Origin: Bacteroidales bacterium UBA4360
Lineage (GTDB): Bacteria > Bacteroidota > Bacteroidia > Bacteroidales > UBA932
NCBI GenBank assembly: GCA_002393945.1
Contig: DGSO01000020.1
Location: 38,517 to 102,516, forward strand
Reading direction: 5' to 3'
DNA: 64,000 nucleotides
Shown: positions 4,051-52,251 of the stretch, piece by piece
How the letters are laid out: each line of letters starts with the position of its first letter
How positions within the stretch are numbered: position 1 is the first letter of the stretch
The notes under the pieces: generated by a model
The model's database searches: none
What the model was told of the DNA's origin: nothing
Seen by the model: only the letters and a program-made list of their open reading frames with translations
Position numbers and translations under genes: made by a program

Positions 4051-4734
4051 GTGCCCAGACTCTACATCATATCAGGCTGCAACGGCTCCGGGAAAACTAC
4101 AGCATCATATGCTCTTCTCCCGGAGCTGCTTGATTGCAGCGAGTTCGTGAACTCCGACGAGTTTGCAAAACACCTTTCACCCTTTGCCCCTGAAGGCGCA
4201 GCCATCACCGCAAGCCGCCTCATGCTCAAAAAGGTGAAGTATCTATTCGAAAGGAGAGAAGATTTCTGCATAGAGACAACGCTGGCAACGCGCTCCCTCC
4301 TCAAAATGGTGCGGACAGCCCAGCAGCAGGGTTATCACGTGACAGTGCTGTATTTCTGGCTCAACAGTCCGGAACTTGCAATCGAAAGGGTTGCCGACAG
4401 GGTCCGTGCCGGCGGGCACGACATACCGGAAGAAACCATACGCAGAAGATATATCGTGGGACTGGGATACCTTTTCCACGACTACATGAAGGAGTGTGAC
4501 AAGTGGATACTTGCCGACAATTCCAATCCCCCGTTTGAAATAATAGCGGAGGGAACAAAGAAAGGCCTCATGATAACGGATATGGAAAGGTACAACAGAA
4601 TCCGTTCCCTTGTAGGCGATACTGACGGGCCCCAGCGCTCCGTCCAGAATGTTACGGAAGAAATAGTGAAGGAACTCAGCAAGGCTCCACTTGCGCACGA
4701 CGGAGTTCCGTTTTCAGGAAATGATATACAGTAA
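4051..4734 (+). CDS. Zeta-toxin-like P-loop NTPase/kinase
   Basis: GCNGSGKT Walker A, NSDEFA, ETTLA, RVRAGGHDIP; GTG start directly after the transporter stop. Confidence 0.8.
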   Translation: MPRLYIISGCNGSGKTTASYALLPELLDCSEFVNSDEFAKHLSPFAPEGAAITASRLMLKKVKYLFERREDFCIETTLATRSLLKMVRTAQQQGYHVTVLYFWLNSPELAIERVADRVRAGGHDIPEETIRRRYIVGLGYLFHDYMKECDKWILADNSNPPFEIIAEGTKKGLMITDMERYNRIRSLVGDTDGPQRSVQNVTEEIVKELSKAPLAHDGVPFSGNDIQ

Positions 4735-6160
4735 ACAGTATTATCTTGACATTTTCAAAGTGGACACCGCCACTCTGGACCGCCTTGTCCAGGAGGGACT
4801 TTCCCGCGGCGGAAACTACTGCGACATATTTTTCGAGAATACCTCTTACGGCAGCCTCCTTCTTAGGGACGGCGCCGTCACATCCGGTGGAAACCATATA
4901 GATTACGGCGTGGGAATCCGCGTCCTTGCCGGAGAAAAAACCGGCTACGCATATTCAGAGAGCACATCCCCTGCCGATATGCTCTCCTGCGCCAAAGCCG
5001 CCGCGAGAATCGCAGACGCCCCTTCCGAAGTAAGTCCATACGGAACCGGCAGCCCCTCCCGCGGTGAACCCAACCCCAATGCCGACCGATACCCCATGGC
5101 AACCCCGTGGGGAGACCTTCGCATGGACAGTTTCCTGCCGTTTCTGAGCAGTCTCGAGGCCAGGATCCGTGAAAAGGACAGACGGATCGTCAAAATAACG
5201 GTTTCTCTCGCCTTCCAGGTGAGCGACATCCTCATGTACAACTCCTTCCGCGAACTAAAATGGGACACCCGCCCCATGGGCAGCGTCTCTGCAACCGCCG
5301 TATTCTCCCAGAACGGCAAGACAGAGAACAAGTCCACCTCCAGGAGTTTCCGCACCGGCGCCGAAATGCTTTCCGATTCCCTTGCCGATGAAATAGCCTC
5401 AGAGGTTGTGAAAGGCATCGACAGCCGCTTCGAGGCAATCCGTCCCAAAGGCGGCAAAATGCCCGTGGTAATGGGTGCAGGCGCATCCGGCATACTCCTT
5501 CACGAAGCCATGGGCCACGCCTTCGAGGCCGATTTCAACCGCAAGGGCACATCCATCTTCTCAGACAAGATGGGCCAGCGCGTCTGCTCCTCCGGAATCA
5601 ACATCATCGACGATGCAACCATCCCCGGCGCACGCGGTTCCCTCAATTATGACGATGAGGGCGTCCCCGGCCAGAAGACCTACATGGTAGAAGACGGAAT
5701 CCTTACCTCCTACCTCCACGACAGGATCAGCGCCGCCCATTACGGCGTAAAATCCACAGGCAACGGCCGCCGTGAAAGCTTCCGCTATGCACCCCTTCCC
5801 CGCATGCGCACCACCTACATGGAAAGCGGCACCGCCCGTGCAGAAGACCTCGTCTCTTCCGTGAAGAAAGGCATCTATGTCGATGAATTCTCCAACGGCC
5901 AGGTTAAAATCGGCGAGGGAGATTTCACCTTCTTCGTAAAATCCGGCTTCCTCATCGAAAACGGCCGCCTGACCGCTCCAGTGAAGGATATCAACATAAT
6001 CGGCAACGGTCCCCGCGCCCTTGCCGACATTGAAGGCGTTGCCGATGACCTCGCAATAGACCCAGGCGCCTGGACCTGCGGCAAGGAGCAGAGCGCACCC
6101 GTGTCCTGCGGAATTCCAACGGTACTCATACGTGAACTAACAGTCGGAGGTGTAAAATGA
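4721..6160 (+). CDS. tldD: TldD metalloprotease subunit
   Basis: LLHEAMGH zinc motif, DDEG, STGNGRR, PRMRTTY, C-terminal CGK. ATG 4721 preferred over the upstream TTG. Confidence 0.92.
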   Translation: MIYSKQYYLDIFKVDTATLDRLVQEGLSRGGNYCDIFFENTSYGSLLLRDGAVTSGGNHIDYGVGIRVLAGEKTGYAYSESTSPADMLSCAKAAARIADAPSEVSPYGTGSPSRGEPNPNADRYPMATPWGDLRMDSFLPFLSSLEARIREKDRRIVKITVSLAFQVSDILMYNSFRELKWDTRPMGSVSATAVFSQNGKTENKSTSRSFRTGAEMLSDSLADEIASEVVKGIDSRFEAIRPKGGKMPVVMGAGASGILLHEAMGHAFEADFNRKGTSIFSDKMGQRVCSSGINIIDDATIPGARGSLNYDDEGVPGQKTYMVEDGILTSYLHDRISAAHYGVKSTGNGRRESFRYAPLPRMRTTYMESGTARAEDLVSSVKKGIYVDEFSNGQVKIGEGDFTFFVKSGFLIENGRLTAPVKDINIIGNGPRALADIEGVADDLAIDPGAWTCGKEQSAPVSCGIPTVLIRELTVGGVK

Positions 6161-14347: not shown

Positions 14348-14392
14348 CAAATGGGCAATTAAAACAATAACCACAAGCCCTGATATAACACT

Positions 14393-15985
14393 ATGGCTGA
14401 AAAAAACCTATTGCTTGGAGACGAGGCACTTGCTCTGGGTGCCATCCATGCCGGCCTTTCCGGCGTTTACGCCTACCCCGGCACGCCTTCTACAGAGATT
14501 ACGGAGTATATCCAGGGACACCCCCTAACTCGTGAAAGAAACATCCACTGCGACTGGTCTTCAAACGAGAAGACTGCAATGGAAGGAGCCCTTGGAATGT
14601 CTTATGCAGGCAAGCGTGCACTCGTGTGCATGAAACACGTTGGCATGAACGTGTGCGCCGATCCTCTCATGGGTTCTGCAATGACAGGAGCGAACGGCGG
14701 TCTCATCATAGCCGCCTGCGACGATCCTTCCATGCACAGTTCACAGAACGAGCAGGATTCCCGCTTCTGGGGCACCTTCGGCATGCTGCCCGTATTCGAA
14801 CCTTCCAACCAGCAGGAGACCTATAATATGACCCGCGCGGCGCTGGATTATTCGGAAAAACGCGGCATCCCTGTCATCATGAGGCTGACTACCCGCATGG
14901 CCCACAGCCGCGCCGTGGTAGAAAGCGCCCCTATGCGCGAACAGAATCAGCTCCACTACCCGGAAAAAGCCCGCCAGTGGGTTACGCTTCCTGTCAATGC
15001 AAGGGTAAGGAACCGCGAACTCATCAAGGATTATGCGCTCTTCGAAGAGGATGCAGCCGCCTCCGAGTTCAACTGGCTCAAGGACGGCCCGGACAGGAGT
15101 CTCGGCATAATTGCCTGCGGTATAGGATACAACTACCTCATGGAGAACTATCCCGACGGCTGCCCGTTCCCGGTTCTCAAGGTGAGCCAGTATCCTTTCC
15201 CCAGGAAACTTGCGCTTGAACTAGCCTCGAAGGTGAAGGCCGTACTCGTCATAGAAGAAGGCCAGCCGCTGGTAGAGGAACGCATGAAGGGATACTTCCC
15301 CACTCCCGTACCTGTAAAGGGACGTCTTGACGGGACTCTTCCCAGGGATGGAGAACTCTCACCGGATGCCGTCCGCGCTGCAGTGGGCCTCCCTGCACTT
15401 CCGCAGTACAACACATCGGAAGTGGTGGTTCCGCGTCCGCCGGCACTTTGCCAGGGCTGCGGGCACAGGGACTTCTATACGGCTCTCAACAATGCCCTGA
15501 AGGATTATCCCGGAGCGAGGGTATTCGGCGATATCGGCTGCTACACCCTTGGCTGGATGCCTCCGTTCAACAGCCTTCATACCTGCGTGGAAATGGGCGC
15601 TTCATGCACCATGGCCCAGGGCGCCGCATTCAGCGGAACCTGGCCTGCAGTTGCCGTCATCGGCGATTCCACCTTCACCCACAGCGGCATGACAGGCCTT
15701 CTTGACGCAGTGAACAGCAAGGCCGATATAACCCTCTGCATATCCGACAACCTCACCACCGGCATGACCGGCGGCCAGGATTCTGCCGGCACAGGCCGCA
15801 TCGAAGCCATCTGCCAGGGACTCGGCGTCGAACCTGAGCATATCCGCACTATCGTCCCTCTCCCCAAGAACTATCCGGACATGGAGAAAGTCATCAAGGA
15901 GGAACTCGACTACCACGGCGTTTCCGTCATCGTATGCCGCCGCGAATGTATCCAGACACTTAGAAGACACGCTGCCAAAAAGTAA
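14393..15985 (+). CDS. iorA: Indolepyruvate ferredoxin oxidoreductase alpha subunit
   Basis: YPGTPSTEI, NEKTA, HSSQNEQDSR, LCQGCGHR, GDIGCY, IGDSTFTHSG (TPP binding), TGMTGGQ. Confidence 0.93.
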   Translation: MAEKNLLLGDEALALGAIHAGLSGVYAYPGTPSTEITEYIQGHPLTRERNIHCDWSSNEKTAMEGALGMSYAGKRALVCMKHVGMNVCADPLMGSAMTGANGGLIIAACDDPSMHSSQNEQDSRFWGTFGMLPVFEPSNQQETYNMTRAALDYSEKRGIPVIMRLTTRMAHSRAVVESAPMREQNQLHYPEKARQWVTLPVNARVRNRELIKDYALFEEDAAASEFNWLKDGPDRSLGIIACGIGYNYLMENYPDGCPFPVLKVSQYPFPRKLALELASKVKAVLVIEEGQPLVEERMKGYFPTPVPVKGRLDGTLPRDGELSPDAVRAAVGLPALPQYNTSEVVVPRPPALCQGCGHRDFYTALNNALKDYPGARVFGDIGCYTLGWMPPFNSLHTCVEMGASCTMAQGAAFSGTWPAVAVIGDSTFTHSGMTGLLDAVNSKADITLCISDNLTTGMTGGQDSAGTGRIEAICQGLGVEPEHIRTIVPLPKNYPDMEKVIKEELDYHGVSVIVCRRECIQTLRRHAAKK

Positions 15986-31987: not shown

Positions 31988-34189
31988 TTAAAAATTGAGC
32001 GCCAACTTCACCGTCCAGTTGCGTGGAGCCTGAGGATAAACGCCGATTCCGGAAGAGACCGTATCCGTAGCCGGATCGTAGCTCTCCCATCTCCACCCGG
32101 AGGCATAGTAAAGGTTATTGAGGAGATTGTTCACATACGCAGAAACTACAAGGGACGAGCGGCCGATGAAAGATACGGTGCGCTGCACCATCAGGTTCAT
32201 CACCCCATAGGCCGGAACGGTCATTTCCTCACGCATGGAATTGTCGAGGTACTGTTTTCCCACATATTTGTAATCGGCCGTGACTAGCCATTTCCTGGAA
32301 GGTGATGCTGAAAGACGTACCATTCCCACCGTGGAAGGAGACATAAGCATGGTGGTCTTCCCGTAATGGACAGCGTGAGTCGCTGAGTAATCCTCATACG
32401 GGACATAGGAGGTATAATCGGCAATCTCGTTGACTGATAGCGTAAGGTTGCCGTCGGCACGGAGCCAGCGGCTCATCTGCCAGGCGCCGGCAAGTTCAAC
32501 TCCCCTTCTCCAGGCGCGGGGGACGTTCTCCTTGATGGCATATCCCGAAGACGAGAGCTTTCCCGTTTCAAGCAGCATGTCCGTATACTCCATCAGGTAT
32601 ACGTTTGCCGATGCAGAGAGCCTCCTGCCCCCGAACTGCCAGCCCAGTTCGATGTCGGTCATCTTTTCGGGGACTATATCGGCCCCGTCACCTTTGACGT
32701 TCTCCTTGATGTCTCCCCTGCCGGGCTCGCGGTTGCCGAGGGCGACGGACGCAAAGAAACTGTGCCGGCCGAAGAGCGCCTTGACGCCTGCCCTGGGGTT
32801 GAAGAAATCCCACTTCCTGTGATAATCGAGCATATCGGCAGGGTTTGAGCCGTATTCGATGAAATCGTCGTCCCGGCCGTCAAGATCGTAGCCGATGGTT
32901 CTGTATTGGAGGTCGGCATAGGCGGTGAGCCATGCGAAGGGATGGTATTCCGCCCTTGCAAAAACGTTGGCTTCCTTTTTCCAACCAGTGTTTCCGTACC
33001 AGTCCACATCCCCGTAATTGTAGGACGAGCCAAGCTGTTTTGTCCAAAGGAGTTCTCCCCAGTGGCCTCCCCTGTATTTGGAGAAGTTCACGCCCGCAGT
33101 GAGATCTAGCCCGCGCGTGCTGTAGCGGAGATTCGAATTCAGGACCCACAGGTCGTTGTCCATCATCTTGCGGTAAGTCATGTCGGAACGGGCGGGCGTT
33201 CCTTCCGGGAGGTCCGTAAAGCCGTAATTCTTCAGTTTCTTATTGCTTTTATAATACTCGTCGTAGCCTTCTCCATTGGTATAATTGAGAGTGGTGCTCC
33301 AAGCGAGGTTCGGCCTCAGGGCACGCGTGTAATTGCCCTGGAAATGGTTCTGGACGTAATTGTCTGTCTGGTTGGGATAATAATACACATTCCCCAAATC
33401 ATCGTAATACTCTCCGGCACCGTTATATGTCCTGTCCTTCTTGTACTGCTCTATGTCTATGCCGTCCCAGGTGATTCCGCTACGCTGTTTTCCCCTCAGA
33501 TAAGTAAAACGGAGGGACTGCCCGCGTCCAAGCCAGCCCAGCATGAAAAATGCCGAATTCGACTGCACGAATGCATTCCGGATATAACCGTCAGTGGTTC
33601 CCTTTGCATACGCCGCGCTTGCATACAGCCCGTGCCTGCTAATTCCGGTCGAACCCGAATGCGTGACCATCTGCGTATCGTATGAGCCCCAGCTGTGTTC
33701 CGTCCTGCCCCAGCCATTAGGCGTTGCAAATGCGGTGTTCATATTGATGCTGGCGCCGAAGGCACCCGCGCCGTTTGCGCTTGTGCCAAGGCCTCTCTGG
33801 ACCTGTACGCCGGAAATCAGCGCCGTCAGCGCCGGAATATTAACCCAGAAGACTTCCTGGGACTCGGCGTCATTCAGGGTGATTCCGTTGAGAGTGACGT
33901 TAATCTGGGAGCCTTTGCTGCCGCGGATAGTCATTGCAGAATTGCCGAGACCGGTACCGCCTTCATTGTAAGTAACCACGGAAGGCAGCAGGTTAAGCGT
34001 CATCGGAATTGAATTGGATGGATTCTGGGACTCGAGCTGAGCCTTGCCCATTTCGGAAAAAGTGACAGGAGTGTTCTTTCCTGCACGGGATGCAGATACA
34101 ACAACGGAGTCCAGGCGTTCAACCTTCTCCTGTGCCGATGCAACGGCACACACGGCAGCCAGAACTGCCACAAAGCATAGTTTTTTCAT
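31988..34189 (-). CDS. TonB-dependent receptor, probably for thiamine
   Basis: Signal peptide ASA-Q, DSVVVSA TonB box, RGSKGSQINVTLNGI plug, C-terminal Phe; TPP riboswitch directly upstream. Confidence 0.9.
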   Translation of the reverse strand: MKKLCFVAVLAAVCAVASAQEKVERLDSVVVSASRAGKNTPVTFSEMGKAQLESQNPSNSIPMTLNLLPSVVTYNEGGTGLGNSAMTIRGSKGSQINVTLNGITLNDAESQEVFWVNIPALTALISGVQVQRGLGTSANGAGAFGASINMNTAFATPNGWGRTEHSWGSYDTQMVTHSGSTGISRHGLYASAAYAKGTTDGYIRNAFVQSNSAFFMLGWLGRGQSLRFTYLRGKQRSGITWDGIDIEQYKKDRTYNGAGEYYDDLGNVYYYPNQTDNYVQNHFQGNYTRALRPNLAWSTTLNYTNGEGYDEYYKSNKKLKNYGFTDLPEGTPARSDMTYRKMMDNDLWVLNSNLRYSTRGLDLTAGVNFSKYRGGHWGELLWTKQLGSSYNYGDVDWYGNTGWKKEANVFARAEYHPFAWLTAYADLQYRTIGYDLDGRDDDFIEYGSNPADMLDYHRKWDFFNPRAGVKALFGRHSFFASVALGNREPGRGDIKENVKGDGADIVPEKMTDIELGWQFGGRRLSASANVYLMEYTDMLLETGKLSSSGYAIKENVPRAWRRGVELAGAWQMSRWLRADGNLTLSVNEIADYTSYVPYEDYSATHAVHYGKTTMLMSPSTVGMVRLSASPSRKWLVTADYKYVGKQYLDNSMREEMTVPAYGVMNLMVQRTVSFIGRSSLVVSAYVNNLLNNLYYASGWRWESYDPATDTVSSGIGVYPQAPRNWTVKLALNF

Positions 34190-34191
34190 AA

Positions 34192-34264
34192 ATCCTTACG
34201 GCGGTATCAACCGCATCAAGTTCAAAGGGTGTAATCTCAATCGGGAGTTTCCCGATACCCCTAT
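34192..34264 (-). ncRNA. TPP riboswitch
   Basis: Minus strand reads AGGGGTATCGGGAAACTCCCGA-TTGAGA-TTACACCCTTTGAACTTGATGCGGTTGATACCGCCGTAAGGA, with TPP consensus blocks (UGAGA, ACCC, GAAC-UGAU, P5 GCGG/CCGC, GUA-GGA). Confidence 0.9.
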
Positions 34265-34269
34265 ATAAT

Positions 34270-35022
34270 TTATTTTTTCAATTCAATCCTATACATCCGC
34301 GGCCAGTTCTTGCCCGTCAGGTAGACATGGCCCTCCGAATCCACGGCTATGCCGTTAAGCACATCTGTATCCTTGGTCCTGAGACTCGCGGGCAGAAGTC
34401 CCCTGCAGTCTACCGTTGCCTCCACCTTGCCGTTTGAGGGATTGATGATGGCAATCATGTCTGACGTATAGACATTGGCCCAGATCTTCCCGTCTATCCA
34501 TTCCAGTTCGTTAAGGTACTGAAGGCTTCTGTCACGGAGTGTCACGCGAAGACGCTTCTGAACCTTGAGGTTGCTGTCAAGGAAATAGAGCGTAGAGGTG
34601 CCGTCGCTTGCGATGAGCTGTTTTCCGTCGGTGGTGAGTCCCCATCCTTCACGCGGATATGCCAGCGTAGCCTTGTAGGTGAGCGTTTTCGCATCGTACC
34701 TGAAGGCCAGCTTGTTTGTCCAGGTGAGGACATAAAGGTCATCGCCAAGGATCACGGAGCCCTCACCGAAATACTTCGATGACAGCTTCTTGATTGCCGT
34801 CACTTCCCCGGTCTCAAGGTCCACGGTACGGATTGAACTCTCTCCCCACTGCCCGGTGGTCTCGTACAGCACCCCGTCATGGAAGAACAGCCCCTGCGTG
34901 TAAGCATGGACATCGTGAGGGTACTCTGCCGTCACCTTTACCTTATACTCCTTCACCTGCGCACTTGAACAGGCGGAAATCAGGAGCCCGGCAACCAGGC
35001 CTATTATGCTGTTGATTCTCAT
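34270..35022 (-). CDS. Glutaminyl-peptide cyclotransferase, type I (beta-propeller), lipoprotein
   Basis: Lipobox LISAC; YTQGL, ETTG, FGEG, LTW, EGWGLT, LNELE, VLNGIA. Confidence 0.9.
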   Translation of the reverse strand: MRINSIIGLVAGLLISACSSAQVKEYKVKVTAEYPHDVHAYTQGLFFHDGVLYETTGQWGESSIRTVDLETGEVTAIKKLSSKYFGEGSVILGDDLYVLTWTNKLAFRYDAKTLTYKATLAYPREGWGLTTDGKQLIASDGTSTLYFLDSNLKVQKRLRVTLRDRSLQYLNELEWIDGKIWANVYTSDMIAIINPSNGKVEATVDCRGLLPASLRTKDTDVLNGIAVDSEGHVYLTGKNWPRMYRIELKK

Positions 35023-35087: not shown

Positions 35088-35100
35088 CCACGCTAAAAAA

Positions 35101-35406
35101 GGCAGGACGATCTGTCGCGGCGCTTCGGCGCTGAGGAAAGTCCGCACAGGAAAGGGCGCCCGTCTGCGGAAAGCGCAGCAGGGAGTAATCTTTGGCACGC
35201 GATAACAGAAAACAACCGCCGCAAGGCAAGGGTGAAAACGCGGGGTAAGAGCCCACGACTATGCATGGCGACATGCAAAGGGTATCGCACACGGGCCTGC
35301 AAGACCAAATATACCGGCAGATTAAGGGCTGCCCGCTCTTTGCCGGGGGGTAGGTTGCGAAGATAAATGACAGATTCAAAAACAGAAAGCGGCTTACGGC
35401 CCTGCC
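35101..35406 (+). ncRNA. rnpB: RNase P RNA, bacterial type A
   Basis: GAGGAAAGTCC, AAGGGTGAAA, CAAGACCAAATA, AGATAAATGAC, ACAGAAAGCGGCTTAC; P1 GGCAGG/CCTGCC; compensatory P4 CCGC/GCGG. Confidence 0.95.
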
Positions 35407-35438
35407 TTTTTTGTAAAGAAACAGTTAACTTATACAAT

Positions 35439-47273: not shown

Positions 47274-48429
47274 TAAAGGCTGCGATGGCCTTGTCAAGGT
47301 GAGACCTCTCGTGTGCGGCGGAAAGCTGCACGCGGATACGGGCCTGCCCCTGAGGAACTACGGGATAGTAGAAGCCGGTCACGAAAATACCTTCTTCAGC
47401 CATTCTGGCCGCGAATTTCTGGGAAAGAGGAGCATCATAGAGCATAACTGCACAGATGGCACTCTGGGTGGGCTTGATGTCAAAGCCCGCGGCCATCATC
47501 TTCTCACGGAAGTAAACCACGTTCTCCATTAGTTTGGTGTGGAGTTCGTCGGACTCTTCGAGGATGTTGAAGGTCTCGATTCCGGCGGCGGCGATCATCG
47601 GAGGAATGGAGTTGGAAAACAGATAAGGACGGGAGCGCTGACGGAGCATGTCGATAATCTCCTTGCGGCCGGTCGTGAAACCGCCCACGGCGCCTCCGAA
47701 GGCCTTTCCAAGGGTTCCTGTGAAGATGTCGATGCGGCCGTAGCAGTCAAACTTTTCTGCAACGCCATGACCGTGCTCGCCTACCACGCCGGCGCTGTGG
47801 CTTTCATCAACCATCACCAGGGCGTCGTATTTTTCGGCAAGGTCACAGATTTTGTCCATAGGGGCGACGTTGCCGTCCATTGAGAATACACCGTCGGTCA
47901 CGATGATGCGGAAACGGCATTTCTGCGCTTCCTGAAGCTTGGCTTCGAGGTCGGCCATGTCGGCATTGGCATAGCGGAAGCGCTGGGCCTTGCAAAGGCG
48001 GACGCCGTCAATGATGGATGCATGGTTCAGGGAATCCGAGATGATGGCGTCGTCTGCGGTGAAGAGGGGTTCGAATACGCCGCCGTTTGCATCGAAGCAG
48101 GCAGCGTAGAGGATGGTGTCCTCTGTATGGAAGAACTTGGATATCCTGGCCTCAAGTTCCTTGTGAAGGTCCTGGGTGCCGCAGATGAAGCGGACGGACG
48201 ACATGCCGTAGCCGCGGTCTTCCATAGCTTTCTTTGCCGCTACTGCAAGTCTGGGATTGTCGCTCAGTCCAAGATAGTTGTTGGCGCAGAAGTTAAGTGC
48301 CCTGGAGCCGTCCTGGAGGGTTATTTCGGCACTTTGGGGCGATGTAATTATACGTTCTTTCTTGTAAAGTCCTGCATTTTCAATACTATTAAGTTCCTGC
48401 TGCAGGTGCTGCTGAAATTTTCCGTACAT
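47239..48429 (-). CDS. kbl: Glycine C-acetyltransferase (2-amino-3-ketobutyrate CoA ligase)
   Basis: NFCANNYLGL, SVRFICGT, NHASIIDG, TDGVFSMDG, GTLGKA. Confidence 0.96.
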   Translation of the reverse strand: MYGKFQQHLQQELNSIENAGLYKKERIITSPQSAEITLQDGSRALNFCANNYLGLSDNPRLAVAAKKAMEDRGYGMSSVRFICGTQDLHKELEARISKFFHTEDTILYAACFDANGGVFEPLFTADDAIISDSLNHASIIDGVRLCKAQRFRYANADMADLEAKLQEAQKCRFRIIVTDGVFSMDGNVAPMDKICDLAEKYDALVMVDESHSAGVVGEHGHGVAEKFDCYGRIDIFTGTLGKAFGGAVGGFTTGRKEIIDMLRQRSRPYLFSNSIPPMIAAAGIETFNILEESDELHTKLMENVVYFREKMMAAGFDIKPTQSAICAVMLYDAPLSQKFAARMAEEGIFVTGFYYPVVPQGQARIRVQLSAAHERSHLDKAIAAFIKVGKELGVLK

Positions 48430-48530
48430 GGTATATAGTTTTTTGTGTTTTCAAATTTAGTAAATTAATATTGATTTTATACAAAAAAGCCGCTAAATTT
48501 GCAAAACATTAAGTAACAAACCGCATTATA

Positions 48531-49484
48531 ATGACAAACGTACTAGTTATAGGTTCCACCGGACAGATTGGCTCCGAACTCACGATGAAGTTACGCAGGG
48601 AAATTCCCGGCAGCACGGTTGTAGCCGGTTACATCCCCGGCGCAGAACCCAAAGGCGAACTTCTTGAAAGCGGCCCGGCAGAGATAGCCGACGTAAGGGA
48701 TGCAAAGGCCCTTGCCGATATCGTTTCAAAGTATAAGATAGATACCATATATAATCTTGCGGCGCTGCTGTCTGCAGTTGCAGAGCGCAAGCCTCTCCTC
48801 GCCTGGGACATCCAGATGAACGGACTCCTCAATATCCTTGAGGTTGCACGCGAGAAAGGCGTAGCCGTTTTCACGCCCTCGTCAATCGGCTCCTTCGGCC
48901 CGGAAACCCCTCATCAGGGAACTCCGCAGGACACCATCCAGCGCCCCCGCTCAATGTACGGCGTTACCAAGGTTGCCACAGAACTTCTCAGCGACTATTA
49001 TTTCCACAAATACGGCGTTGACACCCGTTCCGTACGTTTCCCGGGCCTTATCTCCTACACTACCCTTCCCGGCGGCGGCACCACGGATTACGCCGTTGAA
49101 GTTTACTATTCCGCAGTCAAAGGAGAAGAATTCGTATGCCCCATCGCCCCCGGCACATTCATGGACATGATGTACATGCCTGATGCCCTCAAGGCCGCCG
49201 TAGACCTCATGCAGGCCGATCCCTCCCGCCTCAAGCACCGCAATTCCTTCAATATCGCATCCATGAGTTTCGAGCCCGAACAGCTCTTCGCAAAGATCCG
49301 CGAATACGTACCCGGACTCCGCGTCCGCTACGAGGTGGATCCCGTGCGCCAGGCAATCGCAACCTCATGGCCGGACAGCATGGATGACAGCTGCGCCCGT
49401 GAGGAATGGGGTTGGAAACCGTCATATACACTTGACCAGATGACACAGGATATGCTGCTTCATCTGAGAGAAAAATTATTGTAA
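48531..49484 (+). CDS. tdh: L-threonine 3-dehydrogenase, SDR/epimerase type
   Basis: GSTGQIG, LSAVAE, PSSIG-FG, YGVTK, PGGGTTDY; divergent from kbl. Confidence 0.88.
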   Translation: MTNVLVIGSTGQIGSELTMKLRREIPGSTVVAGYIPGAEPKGELLESGPAEIADVRDAKALADIVSKYKIDTIYNLAALLSAVAERKPLLAWDIQMNGLLNILEVAREKGVAVFTPSSIGSFGPETPHQGTPQDTIQRPRSMYGVTKVATELLSDYYFHKYGVDTRSVRFPGLISYTTLPGGGTTDYAVEVYYSAVKGEEFVCPIAPGTFMDMMYMPDALKAAVDLMQADPSRLKHRNSFNIASMSFEPEQLFAKIREYVPGLRVRYEVDPVRQAIATSWPDSMDDSCAREEWGWKPSYTLDQMTQDMLLHLREKLL

Positions 49485-49528
49485 TCGTTTGTATTTTTAG
49501 AATCGAAACATATTATAACACATTTAAA

Positions 49529-49543
49529 TATTGATAATCAATA
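49529..49543. promoter_or_regulatory. 7-1-7 palindrome, possible operator
   Basis: TATTGAT-A-ATCAATA, about 48 nt upstream of the orphan promoter. Confidence 0.4.
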
Positions 49544-49590
49544 GATTAGCATATTTTTTAAAAAATATTCAAAAAAATCTTTATAAAAAA

Positions 49591-49621
49591 TTTGCAAATC
49601 AAAGAAATTGTCGTACCTTTG
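49591..49621 (+). promoter_or_regulatory. Consensus Bacteroidota promoter, orphan
   Basis: TTTG (49591-49594), 19 nt, TACCTTTG (49614-49621). Confidence 0.8.
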
Positions 49622-49624
49622 TAT

Positions 49625-49743
49625 CCGGATTGAGGAAGTAAGGGTTCTCCTCACGGAATCAATCTATTGGTTATTAGTTTTAGTGTTATTAATTATGTGG
49701 TTAGTAGGAGCGTCCGCCTGTGAAGGTCGACGCTTTCTGTTTT
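49625..49743 (+). ncRNA. Candidate trans-acting sRNA (about 120 nt)
   Basis: Own promoter; 5' hairpin (CCG/CGG plus TGAGGA/TCCTCA); G/U-rich unstructured core 49665-49707; terminator GAGCGTC-C-GCCT-GTGA-AGGT-C-GACGCTT followed by TCTGTTTT. Confidence 0.7.
49707..49743 (+). terminator. Intrinsic terminator with a GNRA (GUGA) loop
   Basis: Stem 49707-49735 plus a U-rich tail. Confidence 0.75.
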
Positions 49744-49771
49744 ATATAATATCTGCAGCACGAATGGGAAC

Positions 49772-49797
49772 AAAAAAAGGCGCCTTGGAAGGCGCCT
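49772..49797 (-). terminator. tRNA-Cys terminator
   Basis: AGGCGCCT-TGGA-AGGCGCCT stem; continues as a T run on the minus strand. Confidence 0.8.
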
Positions 49798-49801
49798 GAA
49801 G

Positions 49802-49872
49802 AGGTGCGAAGCGGAATCGAACCGCTGTAGCAGGTTTTGCAGACCTGTGCCTGACCACTCGGCCATCGCACC
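49802..49872 (-). tRNA. trnC: tRNA-Cys (GCA), CCA not encoded
   Basis: GGTGCGA/TCGCACC acceptor stem, anticodon arm CAGGT-CTGCAAA-ACCTG, GGTTCGATTCC, U73 discriminator. Confidence 0.97.
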
Positions 49873-49883
49873 GTAAGGGAATG

Positions 49884-49914
49884 CAAAGTTAAGCCCTTTT
49901 TTGAAATATACAAA
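49884..49914 (-). promoter_or_regulatory. tRNA-Cys promoter
   Basis: TTTG, 19 nt, TAACTTTG on the minus strand. Confidence 0.8.
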
Positions 49915-49915
49915 A

Positions 49916-50383
49916 TTATTTTTCCGGCTTCTTCTTGTTGAAGATTACAAACTCCGACATGTAGAAATTGAAGAGGCCGGAGAAGCACAGACCTATCATG
50001 TTACATATCACCGGTTCGATGGAGTAGTCCTGCAGCCAGTCAATGCTAACGAAGAGGAAGTGGACACCCTGCATCACGATGAACTTTATGATGAACGCCC
50101 CTACCCCGGCTGCGTTATAACCGGCAAAATGGCGCCAGAAGGACCTGGCTCCGCGATAGGACACCCTCTCTTTCCAAACGAAGAAATACGCTATGATGAA
50201 ATTCGTCATGGCGGCGACTTCGAAGGAGATGACCGGAGCTATCCAGTAACTTCCCCAGTAATTGCCGCTGAAAACATAATGGGAGAGAATCCAGTGAAGT
50301 CCAAGGTCTACGATTGTCCCCGCCAACGACGTCAGCGAAAACAATACCAGTTTTTGGAGGATTTCCTTGAAACTTCTGCTCAT
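49916..50383 (-). CDS. GtrA family membrane protein
   Basis: Four TM helices, GTIVD, TNF..AYFFVW; real start MSRSFKE at 50383, just downstream of TACCTTTG (50399-50392). Confidence 0.85.
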   Translation of the reverse strand: MSRSFKEILQKLVLFSLTSLAGTIVDLGLHWILSHYVFSGNYWGSYWIAPVISFEVAAMTNFIIAYFFVWKERVSYRGARSFWRHFAGYNAAGVGAFIIKFIVMQGVHFLFVSIDWLQDYSIEPVICNMIGLCFSGLFNFYMSEFVIFNKKKPEK

Positions 50384-50461
50384 AGCAAAGACAAAGGTAC
50401 AATTATTTTTGGGATTGTCAGCATTTTCATCTAAATTAGCACCACTAAAACCCAAACCCAA

Positions 50462-51268
50462 ATGCCCGACTATACTATTAGTGTAGAGAAAATGTTCAAG
50501 GCGAAGTTCGGCCCCAAAACGCCGAAGCTTCTTATCAGCCTTGGCCGCAAACTCCTTCATGAGGATTGGCTGAACGAATTCTTCCGCCGCGGTTATACCG
50601 GTGTGGAATTTGCCGAAGAGACCCTCAAGTATCTGAACGTCACAATCAACGTCGAAGGCCTCGAGAATCTGAAGAAGGACGGCACTCTCTACACAATCGC
50701 CGGGAACCATGCCCTAGGCGGAATCGACGCCATAACTATGATTGCGGTTTTCGGCCGGCATTTCGACAGCAATCTCAAGTGCATGGTGAACGATTTCCTC
50801 ATGAACCTCCACCAACTGGACGGTTTCATGATTGCCGTAAACAAGGTATCACACGTACAGGCCCGTGAACTTGCCAGGGAGACAGATGAAATCTACTCCT
50901 CCGACAACCAGATTTTCATGTTCCCGGCCGGAAAAGTCTCCAGAAAGATCAAGGGTAAAATCCAGGACGACGTCTGGACCAAGACTTTCCTCACCAAGAG
51001 CATAAAATACCACCGGGACATAGTTCCAATGCACTTTTACGGCAGGAACACGTGGCGCTTCTACTTCGTTGACTGGATTGGAAAAGTGACCGGCATCAAC
51101 AAGAAATTCCCACTAGCGATGGCACTTCTTGTCGATGAGCTCTACCGTGCCCAGGGCAACACTTACAGGCTGGTTATAGGCAAGCCGATTCCCTGGAGTC
51201 ATTTTGACAGTTCAAAACGCCCCATCGAATGGGCACAATGGGTAAGGGAGAAAGTGTACGAGTTATGA
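50462..51268 (+). CDS. PlsC-superfamily acyltransferase (GlsA/OlsA-like)
   Basis: NHALGGID, FPAGKVSR, IVPMHFYGRN. Confidence 0.85.
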   Translation: MPDYTISVEKMFKAKFGPKTPKLLISLGRKLLHEDWLNEFFRRGYTGVEFAEETLKYLNVTINVEGLENLKKDGTLYTIAGNHALGGIDAITMIAVFGRHFDSNLKCMVNDFLMNLHQLDGFMIAVNKVSHVQARELARETDEIYSSDNQIFMFPAGKVSRKIKGKIQDDVWTKTFLTKSIKYHRDIVPMHFYGRNTWRFYFVDWIGKVTGINKKFPLAMALLVDELYRAQGNTYRLVIGKPIPWSHFDSSKRPIEWAQWVREKVYEL

Positions 51269-52251
51269 AAACTATAATTTCCCCTGTAGACAAGGCCCTT
51301 CTGAAGGCCGAACTTAATGAAAAGACATTCCTACGTGAAACAAACCGCGCAGGCAACCACCTCTATGTAGTGGGGCCCGAATCGGTCAATGTAATACGCG
51401 AAATCGGCAGGCTGCGCGAGATCGCCTTCAGGGACGGAGGCGGCGGAACCGGAGAAGAACTCGACATCGACCAGTTCGACACCGACCCCGCATACGGATA
51501 CAGGCAGCTTGTCCTCTGGGATCCGGAGGCCGAGGAAATCATCGGCGGCTACCGCTTCTGCCTGTGCGACAGGGCGGTCTACACAAGGGAAGGCCAGCCG
51601 ATTCTCACATCGTCCCACATGTTCGAGTTTTCGAGGAAGTTCCTCAATGATATACTGCCTTATACCCTTGAACTCGGCAGGTCGTTCATCTCCCTGGATT
51701 ACCAGAGCTCGAAGGCGGGTTCAAAGATGCTCTATGCCCTTGACAACCTGTTTGACGGCATTGCGGCCCTGGGTGTACTCTACCAGAACCGCATCAAGTT
51801 CCTGTTCGGCAAGATGACCATATACAGGGAGTATCCTCAGGAAGCGCGTGAGATGATTATGGTCTTCCTGAAAAAGTACTTCGGCAAAGGCCGCCGCCTC
51901 ATCCATATCAGGAAGGAAGTGAAGGTGGAGAATCCCAGGAAGTATTTAAAGCTGTTCAAGTCCGGGAACTTCAAGGATGATTATAAGATACTCAAGACCG
52001 AGGTAATGAAATTCGGAGTTTCAATCCCTCCTCTTGTGAATACCTACATGAACCTGTCCCCTACCATGATTTATTTCGGGACCGGCATCAACGATGAGTT
52101 CGGAGATATCTACGATTCAGGTATCCTCCTTGCCTTCGACGAGTTGTATCCCGAGAAAATTGACAGGCACTCGAAGTCCTTTGCCCGCCAGGGTCTGAGG
52201 AAAATCAAGGCCATCCTCAAGAATTTCCAGAAAATCCACAAGGTAAAGTAG
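51265..52251 (+). CDS. GNAT N-acyltransferase (GlsB/OlsB-like)
   Basis: EIGRLREIAFR-GGGG, DIDQFD, LELGRSF, YMNLSP; ATG overlaps the previous stop. Confidence 0.85.
   Translation: MKTIISPVDKALLKAELNEKTFLRETNRAGNHLYVVGPESVNVIREIGRLREIAFRDGGGGTGEELDIDQFDTDPAYGYRQLVLWDPEAEEIIGGYRFCLCDRAVYTREGQPILTSSHMFEFSRKFLNDILPYTLELGRSFISLDYQSSKAGSKMLYALDNLFDGIAALGVLYQNRIKFLFGKMTIYREYPQEAREMIMVFLKKYFGKGRRLIHIRKEVKVENPRKYLKLFKSGNFKDDYKILKTEVMKFGVSIPPLVNTYMNLSPTMIYFGTGINDEFGDIYDSGILLAFDELYPEKIDRHSKSFARQGLRKIKAILKNFQKIHKVK

Follow-up and report, generated by a model that had tools for sequence, protein, structure and literature searches.

To our knowledge, Bacteroidota have neither Hfq nor ProQ nor an initiation of translation led by Shine-Dalgarno sequences, their post-transcriptional control is poorly understood, and nearly all work on their small RNAs (sRNAs) has been done in one species. 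GcvB is an sRNA encoded divergently from gcvA, controlled by GcvA/GcvR and dependent on Hfq, with a regulon of amino-acid and peptide genes.

Bacteroides is described as lacking Hfq in a passage of PMC13370968. The sRNAs which most resemble the one reported here are FopS and GibS of B. thetaiotaomicron, which have 65-70 nt, sigma-ABfr promoters and variable terminators (Ruttiger et al. 2025, PMC11697453). FopS is multicopy, with 12-15 copies per genome, and the 41-nt motif obtained from CLIP peaks of the protein RbpB coincides with the invariant, single-stranded 5' region of FopS (PMC11697453). RbpB binds single-stranded stretches, and its affinity for FopS is only micromolar (PMC11697453). 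Experiments showed that both sRNAs act at the start codon of susC-like mRNAs and prevent their translation, and that RbpB works against this repression (PMC11697453).

Here we analysed a 64-kb stretch of Bacteroidales DNA (the window), in which an initial annotation had proposed an orphan sRNA acting as a functional analogue of GcvB.

Anatomy, conservation and expression of the sRNA gene

The sRNA gene is located in a gap of 316 nt between a gene encoding a tdh-like SDR (48531-49484, + strand) and tRNA-Cys (49801-49872, - strand). It gives an independently transcribed RNA of about 115-120 nt on the + strand, which starts near 49626 and ends at about 49745. The predicted promoter, TTTG-N19-TACCTTTG, is of the Bacteroidota sigma-ABfr -33/-7 pattern. 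The promoter, the 5' hairpin and the terminator with a GNRA-type (GUGA) loop described in the initial annotation are all present, at the following positions:

49591-49594, + strand: -33 promoter element TTTG, read off the sequence and kept in 32 of 32 aligned relatives
49614-49621, + strand: -7 box TACCTTTG (TAnnTTTG), after a 19-nt spacer from the -33 element; conserved in relatives; a metatranscriptome contig begins at 49622
49627-49665, + strand: 5' stem-loop, from RNAalifold and pair counts
49627-49633 with 49659-49665, + strand: helix P1, 100% paired, with compensatory AU/UA and AU/GC swaps
49638-49654, + strand: hairpin P2 with a conserved GGUUCU loop; double changes in four of five pairs
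49664-49704, + strand: invariant core CUAUUGGUUAUUAGUUUUAGUGUUAUUAAUUAUGUGGUUAG, proposed seed and/or protein-binding region
49708-49743, + strand: intrinsic terminator, with its stem at 49708-49735, GUGA loop at 49720-49723 and U-tract to 49743

The outer helix of the 5' stem-loop is formed by GGAUUGA and UCAAUCU and encloses the inner hairpin, and UUUCUGUUUU lies directly 3' of the terminator hairpin. Between both structures, the stretch of about 45 nt (49664-49708) that had been annotated as unstructured and G/U-rich is indeed G/U-rich and, from 49666 on, C-free (the 41 nt from 49666 contain 22 U, 10 A, 9 G and no C), while the term unstructured is only approximate, as the predicted unpaired probability across the core is 0.3-0.6. 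The core is unpaired in the centroid structure and contains internal repeats of GUUAUUA, UUAGU and GGUUA motifs. The single-sequence fold of the window copy is unremarkable (z = -1.6), therefore the case rests on comparison with relatives.

Relatives were obtained from 80 loci fetched via the neighboring tdh protein, all of them from uncultured Bacteroidales MAGs of cattle, sheep, goat, deer, buffalo, reindeer and horse. Blastn found the element in 33 of these 80 loci, all with a tdh identity of about 80% or more; beside the tdh genes of loci L035-L080, no distant homologue was found with the exception of L039. The element is usually located directly after tdh, although in L004-L008 and L011 it lies 1.2 kb further off and in L016 it is found on the upstream side of tdh and on the opposite strand.

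The alignment of 31 relatives by tdh synteny with the window copy shows 41 nt, CTATTGGTTATTAGTTTTAGTGTTATTAATTATGTGGTTAG, identical in all 32 sequences, though the tdh proteins diverge to about 80% identity. Conservation extends to the promoter boxes, and the hairpins on either side of the core vary. Three helices are supported by RNAalifold and explicit pair counting: 96.8% of the alignment cells are paired and 11 of the 22 pairs show changes on both sides, values that none of 500 shuffles matched, and slid controls were 34-49% paired. In the terminator stem, 98.7% of cells are paired and five pairs show double changes. Homologue alignment with covariation analysis, one of the checks proposed in the initial annotation, thus came out in favor of a conserved RNA, and the presence of G-U pairs, whose counterparts on the opposite strand are A-C, indicates that the RNA strand is the + strand.

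Expression was studied in Logan contigs from four gut metatranscriptomes. One contig spans 49622-49706 with a depth of 39 and another ends at 49745, and these ends match the predicted start and terminator. Word depth was 55-469 in the core, which is comparable to the neighboring tRNA and is the deepest transcript coverage of the locus, versus 0-13 in tdh and 3-7 in the GtrA-family gene. Furthermore, one contig (49381-49696) runs from tdh into the core, so some read-through from tdh is possible. As evidence for a high abundance of the RNA in gut metatranscriptomes, these contigs are good without being final, given that they carry no strand information and perhaps derive partly from DNA. Altogether, the feature is conserved, covarying and transcribed far beyond chance.

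Distribution and variants of the family

A metagenome scan which used a 23-nt piece of the core as search pattern found at least 120 further metagenome contigs carrying the core, from sources that include rumen, sheep, goat, pig and human gut, and their copies were aligned with a covariance model built from the first (tdh-locus) alignment. The 5' parts and terminators of these copies are often unrecognisably different, and 36 nt (49669-49704) are invariant family-wide. Of 79 distinct metagenome copies, 76 keep without change the 13 core nucleotides not forced by the search pattern (GGTTATTAGTTTT). The family is widespread in uncultured Bacteroidales of ruminant and other guts: contigs that carry it number at least 150 and come from ruminants, horses, pigs and humans. 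It is among the most strictly conserved non-coding sequences outside rRNA and tRNA, and offers a ready probe and knock-out target for uncultured or newly cultured rumen Bacteroidales.

The 5' stem-loop is wholly absent from some relatives. In L087, L113, L133, L139, L160, L161 and L116, the -7 box is found immediately before GGUUAUUAG, and these hairpin-less copies specify an RNA of about 75 nt that begins with the core. Among hairpin-bearing copies, nearly all keep the (G)GUUCU loop of the 5' hairpin, even with wholly different stems; this loop could be a second seed or a protein contact. The core itself is modular: L199 and L114 carry GGUUAUUAGUUUU-GUGGUUAG without the middle, the first core module is replaced in L112, L114 and L185, and L185 also has a diverged second copy. 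Two family members within a few kb were observed in L087 (3411-3514 and 4169-4282, in tandem), in L114 (8211-8310 and 10213-10320) and in L185 (2408-2473 on the - strand and 4706-4826); L199 also carries two copies, one of them located at 5254-5369 (- strand). The short form among paired copies is devoid of the middle 15 nt (GGUUAUUAGUUUUGUGGUUAG), and others show the replaced first module. These paired and variant copies point to paralogue diversification.

The window contains one copy, the assembly of its organism shows one matching contig, and another assembly breaks at the core. The 260 genes flanking the family members fall into 125 neighbor clusters, of which the commonest are tdh upstream (34), a ComF-like gene (12), Maf (9) and glutaminase (8); since the neighbors are many and unrelated, they give no fixed protein partner. 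No match was found in 50,697 phage genomes. The sole copy in the viral-contig collection (L081:5532-5642) lies between an NAD-dependent DNA ligase gene (ligA) and an integrase gene on a 110-kb contig, and is probably chromosomal or proviral rather than carried by a free phage.

Comparison with known RNAs

The search against Rfam 15, which the initial annotation had proposed, gave no family for the RNA: only tRNA-Cys passes at the gathering score, and GcvB (RF00022) gives no match in 49400-49950, either at the gathering score or at E ≤ 10. A literal search for the core letters, which covered 8.3 million papers, also returned nothing, and the sRNA family is thus absent from Rfam and without a description found in the literature. 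The best sRNA match in Rfam, to RteR (RF04181), the CTnDOT sRNA of Bacteroides, spans GUGGUU(A)GUAG and the terminator; with 21 bits against a gathering score of 72 and an E-value of about 1 it is at chance level, and the window locus differs from RteR in having no conjugative-transposon context. The matches to L20_leader and weev_FSE are also at chance level, and SrcF of Segatella copri, with 272 nt, is unrelated.

In common with GcvB, the new family shows a conserved G/U-rich single-stranded region proposed to pair with C/A-rich leaders, and a connection with amino-acid metabolism may be a further common trait. The likeness to the G/U-rich seed (R1) of GcvB is one of analogy only, to a core that is C-free (U22 G9 A10), and the neighbors of the window sRNA are the tdh-like gene and tRNA-Cys instead of gcvA, with gcvH at a distance of 13 kb. 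The family is not GcvB.

The closest known analogue is FopS/GibS, and the comparison, for which 51 distinct FopS copies were recovered from viral or proviral contigs, is suggestive of an RNA that works like FopS, while homology is not demonstrable. Both have a Bacteroidales host and a sigma-ABfr -33/-7 promoter, whose layout was confirmed in the FopS copies; both show an invariant, C-poor and U/A/G-rich single-stranded region of about 40 nt, with a variable terminator directly after it that often has a GNRA-like loop; and in both, some contigs carry two copies or diverged paralogues. The hairpin-less copies of the new family, with about 75 nt and the core at the 5' end, resemble FopS in size and layout. 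Furthermore, the motif UAUUA-N7-GGUUA is common to the new family and FopS, and for both the predicted sites of action are 5'UTR and start-codon regions poor in G. However, the FopS R1/R1' seed (GUAUUAGAUUUAAGGUUAAC and its flanks) is not found in the new core, where identity is 14-17 over 21-31 aligned positions. Local alignment of the new core with FopS was not significant against dinucleotide shuffles (p = 0.15-0.5), and the covariance model gives FopS genes 17-28 bits, the same range as a few unrelated matches. The window copy also differs in its extra covarying 5' stem-loop of about 40 nt, which takes the RNA to about 120 nt in total; the new family is single-copy in the assembly of the window's organism versus the 12-15 copies of FopS, and its candidate targets are kbl and tdh instead of susC-like genes.

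A different sRNA-like element was observed on a Bacteroides proviral contig (L221:6001-6124, + strand); it combines a hairpin at its 5' end with a single-stranded, U-rich stretch and a terminator. The covariance model gives this element 30 bits, and it bears no relation to the FopS copy which that contig also carries.

Candidate targets and rival explanations

The initial annotation had listed by eye complements of the core at gene starts of the window. These complements exist, with 10 nt at pepD (503-512, - strand), 9 nt at iorA (14385-14393) and 9 nt at the adjacent acyltransferase gene, glsA (50443-50451), and those at gcvH (8 nt) and kbl (7 nt) are also real. The gene identities were checked for glycine C-acetyltransferase Kbl (692 bits), IorA, GcvH, PepD and GlsA. 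However, as evidence the list does not beat composition: when the 56 start regions of the window were compared using RNAduplex with 200 dinucleotide shuffles of the core, the best energy gave p = 0.23 and the top five p = 0.34, and the mean duplex energy was worse than for the shuffled cores. RNAduplex energies of the kbl and tdh leaders of about 90 loci were not significant either (z = -0.6 to +0.4), and these negative energy tests are to be set beside the promiscuous pairing of G/U-rich sequence with A/C-rich leaders.

The sequence (A)AUAACACUAUG starts several unrelated genes: pepD (503-514, - strand), iorA (14383-14395, + strand) and the kbl of L050 and L074; ntpB and ntpK share CACUAUG. 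The (A)AUAACACUAUG context, which is complementary to the core segment UAGUGUUAUU, may be a lineage-typical start context. In FopS, the invariant 5' region (UGUUUUUCAU) is a perfect complement of AUGAAAAAC(A), the very common MKN start, and matches 39 of 78 tdh start regions with at least 9 nt. This example shows by what means many start codons can come within reach of FopS, and it calls for caution with target tests based on k-mers.

Perfect Watson-Crick runs were counted, against core shuffles, in 1038 unique start regions from all loci. Runs of at least 9 nt numbered 38 versus 20.1 ± 5.7 expected, and runs of at least 10 nt 23 versus 6.3. The larger part of this excess falls in kbl, where 15 of 66 leaders show runs of at least 9 nt versus 3.5 ± 2.4 expected, a count that none of 1000 core shuffles reached, and nine show runs of at least 10 nt versus 1.1 expected. 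With start-region shuffles as null, the expectation was 2.8 ± 1.6 and none of 500 reached the observed count; as control cores, the reversed core gave six and the FopS core none. The kbl matches represent 13 different site and position combinations, all of them between the kbl -7 box and the AUG. The tdh runs are marginal across all loci (p about 0.05). When only sRNA-carrying loci were considered, p was 0.015 for kbl, 0.023 for tdh and 0.001 for both together (13 versus 2.85). In the other 894 start regions, counts at 8-9 nt do not exceed the expectation and those at 10 nt do so weakly (11 versus 4.6, p = 0.02); the matches outside kbl and tdh are not in amino-acid genes in particular, and some are in genes of envelope proteins, near the expected base rate. 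The kbl signal rests on exact-run counts in orthologous leaders, which are not independent, and the test was picked once the data had been seen; for about half of the kbl matches, the genome is not established as an sRNA carrier, and the ortholog groups other than kbl and tdh are too small to act as negative controls.

Among the genes considered, the only candidate targets with statistical support are the divergent kbl and tdh located just upstream of the sRNA gene, tdh being marginal. The pathway of kbl and tdh leads from threonine to glycine and acetyl-CoA, and a link of the sRNA to threonine/glycine metabolism is plausible but unproven. The candidate sites in the window are:

48428-48455, - strand: candidate site in the kbl 5'UTR and start codon, predicted duplex of -15.9 kcal/mol
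48515-48537, + strand: candidate site in the 5'UTR and start codon of the tdh-like SDR gene, predicted duplex of -17.4 kcal/mol

The longest perfect run with kbl in the window is only 7 nt. The predicted tdh duplex, AACCGCAU with AUGUGGUU, is the third best of the 56 window start regions and includes 8 bp, one of them G-U. Across the loci, the kbl matches cluster on three core segments: AUUAGUUUUAG, complementary to the leader sequence CUAAAACUAAU; UGGUUAU, complementary to AUAACC and the A of the AUG; and UAUGUGGUUA, complementary to the leader sequence UAACCACAUA, a motif also found just 5' of the tdh AUG in several relatives. Complements of three parts of the core, namely CUAAAACUAAU, AUAACC(AUG) and (U)AACCACAUA, recur in the kbl and tdh leaders, and in L010 the entire kbl leader is predicted to pair with the two outer core modules with the middle looped out. 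No complementarity of at least 9 nt was found between the core and RNase P RNA or other RNAs in the window.

The best explanation, which we favor with modest confidence, is a trans-acting sRNA which pairs with leaders, kbl and tdh being its best-supported candidate targets. The invariant C-free segment would pair with G-poor, A/C-rich 5'UTRs and start-codon regions and would thereby block the initiation of translation, by analogy with what is experimentally known for FopS/GibS of B. thetaiotaomicron (PMC11697453); an RRM-type RNA-binding protein may modulate the pairing, and kbl and tdh would be repressed through the complements in their leaders. A seed alone would not require as many as 36 invariant nucleotides; this is a hint that something else, for instance a protein partner, constrains the sequence, and an RRM-type partner is a plausible reason for this invariance. 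The RNA might even be mainly a protein-binding sponge or platform, whose C-free segment titrates a global protein that binds single-stranded RNA, for instance an RRM-1 protein similar to RbpB, a role compatible with pairing. Invariance over 36-41 nt in excess of pairing needs, the internal repeats of the core, the great abundance of the RNA, the UAUUA-N7-GGUUA motif common to FopS and the identity of the RbpB CLIP motif with the invariant FopS region (PMC11697453) fit such a role; nevertheless, we consider it unlikely, because a crude motif scan of the window and 1.3 Mb of loci found no RRM gene, the affinity of RbpB for FopS is only micromolar (PMC11697453) and the excess of complements in kbl leaders argues for pairing. 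As for the proposal of the initial annotation, a GcvB analogue in function whose G/U-rich seed would serve to repress amino-acid and peptide genes globally (pepD, iorA, gcvH and kbl), what has stood is an independent sRNA gene with a conserved, G/U-rich and largely single-stranded region and an excess of complements in kbl (15 versus 3.5). The complements of 9-10 nt at pepD, iorA and glsA and of 7-8 nt at kbl and gcvH, the kbl/tdh enrichment and the presence of tdh (34 copies) and glutaminase (8 copies) among the commonest neighbors also agree with it. Its global scope has not been borne out: there is no Rfam match to GcvB and no gcvA context, targets across the window do not outdo shuffles, in the 894 other start regions the excess is limited to the weak one at 10 nt, their matches do not favor amino-acid genes, and a single pathway has statistical support. 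A GcvB-like global role in amino-acid metabolism is thus not supported, and we give this reading little credence.

Two further readings dispense with a trans-acting RNA. A cis-acting 3' element of tdh, be it a shared terminator or a 3'UTR-derived RNA with no function in trans, would agree with tdh being the commonest upstream neighbor, with the contig that joins tdh to the core and with the lack of a terminator between the tdh stop (49484) and the sRNA. It is very improbable, however, because the sRNA is preceded by a conserved promoter of its own, tdh is not the neighbor of about three quarters of the copies, some copies have the promoter directly before the core, and a role as terminator leaves the invariant core unexplained. 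A small protein encoded in the region is barely credible: a 63-codon ORF with a TTG start (49608-49799) and an AUG at 49691 are present, but an indel (GUAG, GU-AG or GUAAG) shifts the frame of the sole AUG between close relatives, so that the locus does not code for a protein, the relatives have unrelated sequences 3' of the terminator, and the compensatory changes preserve RNA helices. Gene callers placed no gene at the sRNA locus in public assemblies, and the statement of the initial annotation that there is no credible ORF holds.

If the link of the pairing sRNA to kbl and tdh is true, amino-acid catabolism in Bacteroidota would for the first time be connected with an sRNA, and if the relationship to FopS is true, the regulatory principle would extend well beyond Bacteroidaceae. 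In a wider and more speculative reading, which we think doubtful, the invariant 36-mer would be an RRM-1 docking platform together with a general "anti-5'UTR" sequence, and the new family would belong, together with FopS and GibS, to one ancient superfamily of sRNA-protein hubs in Bacteroidales, with each branch retargeted, to threonine/glycine catabolism here and to glycan uptake in Bacteroides. This reading comes from the shared UAUUA-N7-GGUUA motif, promoter type and layout.

Other features of the window were also observed. A TPP riboswitch (34175-34272, - strand; 68 bits) is found upstream of a 733-aa ORF, and near it lies a class A RNase P RNA (35099-35412, + strand; 180 bits). Beyond tRNA-Cys, the GtrA-family gene (49916-50383, - strand) encodes 155 aa and is not the 264-aa ORF; a TACCTTTG -7 box (50393-50400, - strand) is located 9 nt before its ATG, so its mRNA would be leaderless or nearly so. 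At 50462-52251 (+ strand), the adjacent acyltransferase gene encodes GlsA, a lyso-glycine lipid O-acyltransferase (268 bits, above the cut-off), and is followed by a GNAT-type gene which is likely GlsB. With GlsA and the likely GlsB, glycine-lipid synthesis adjoins the glycine-producing kbl/tdh pair.
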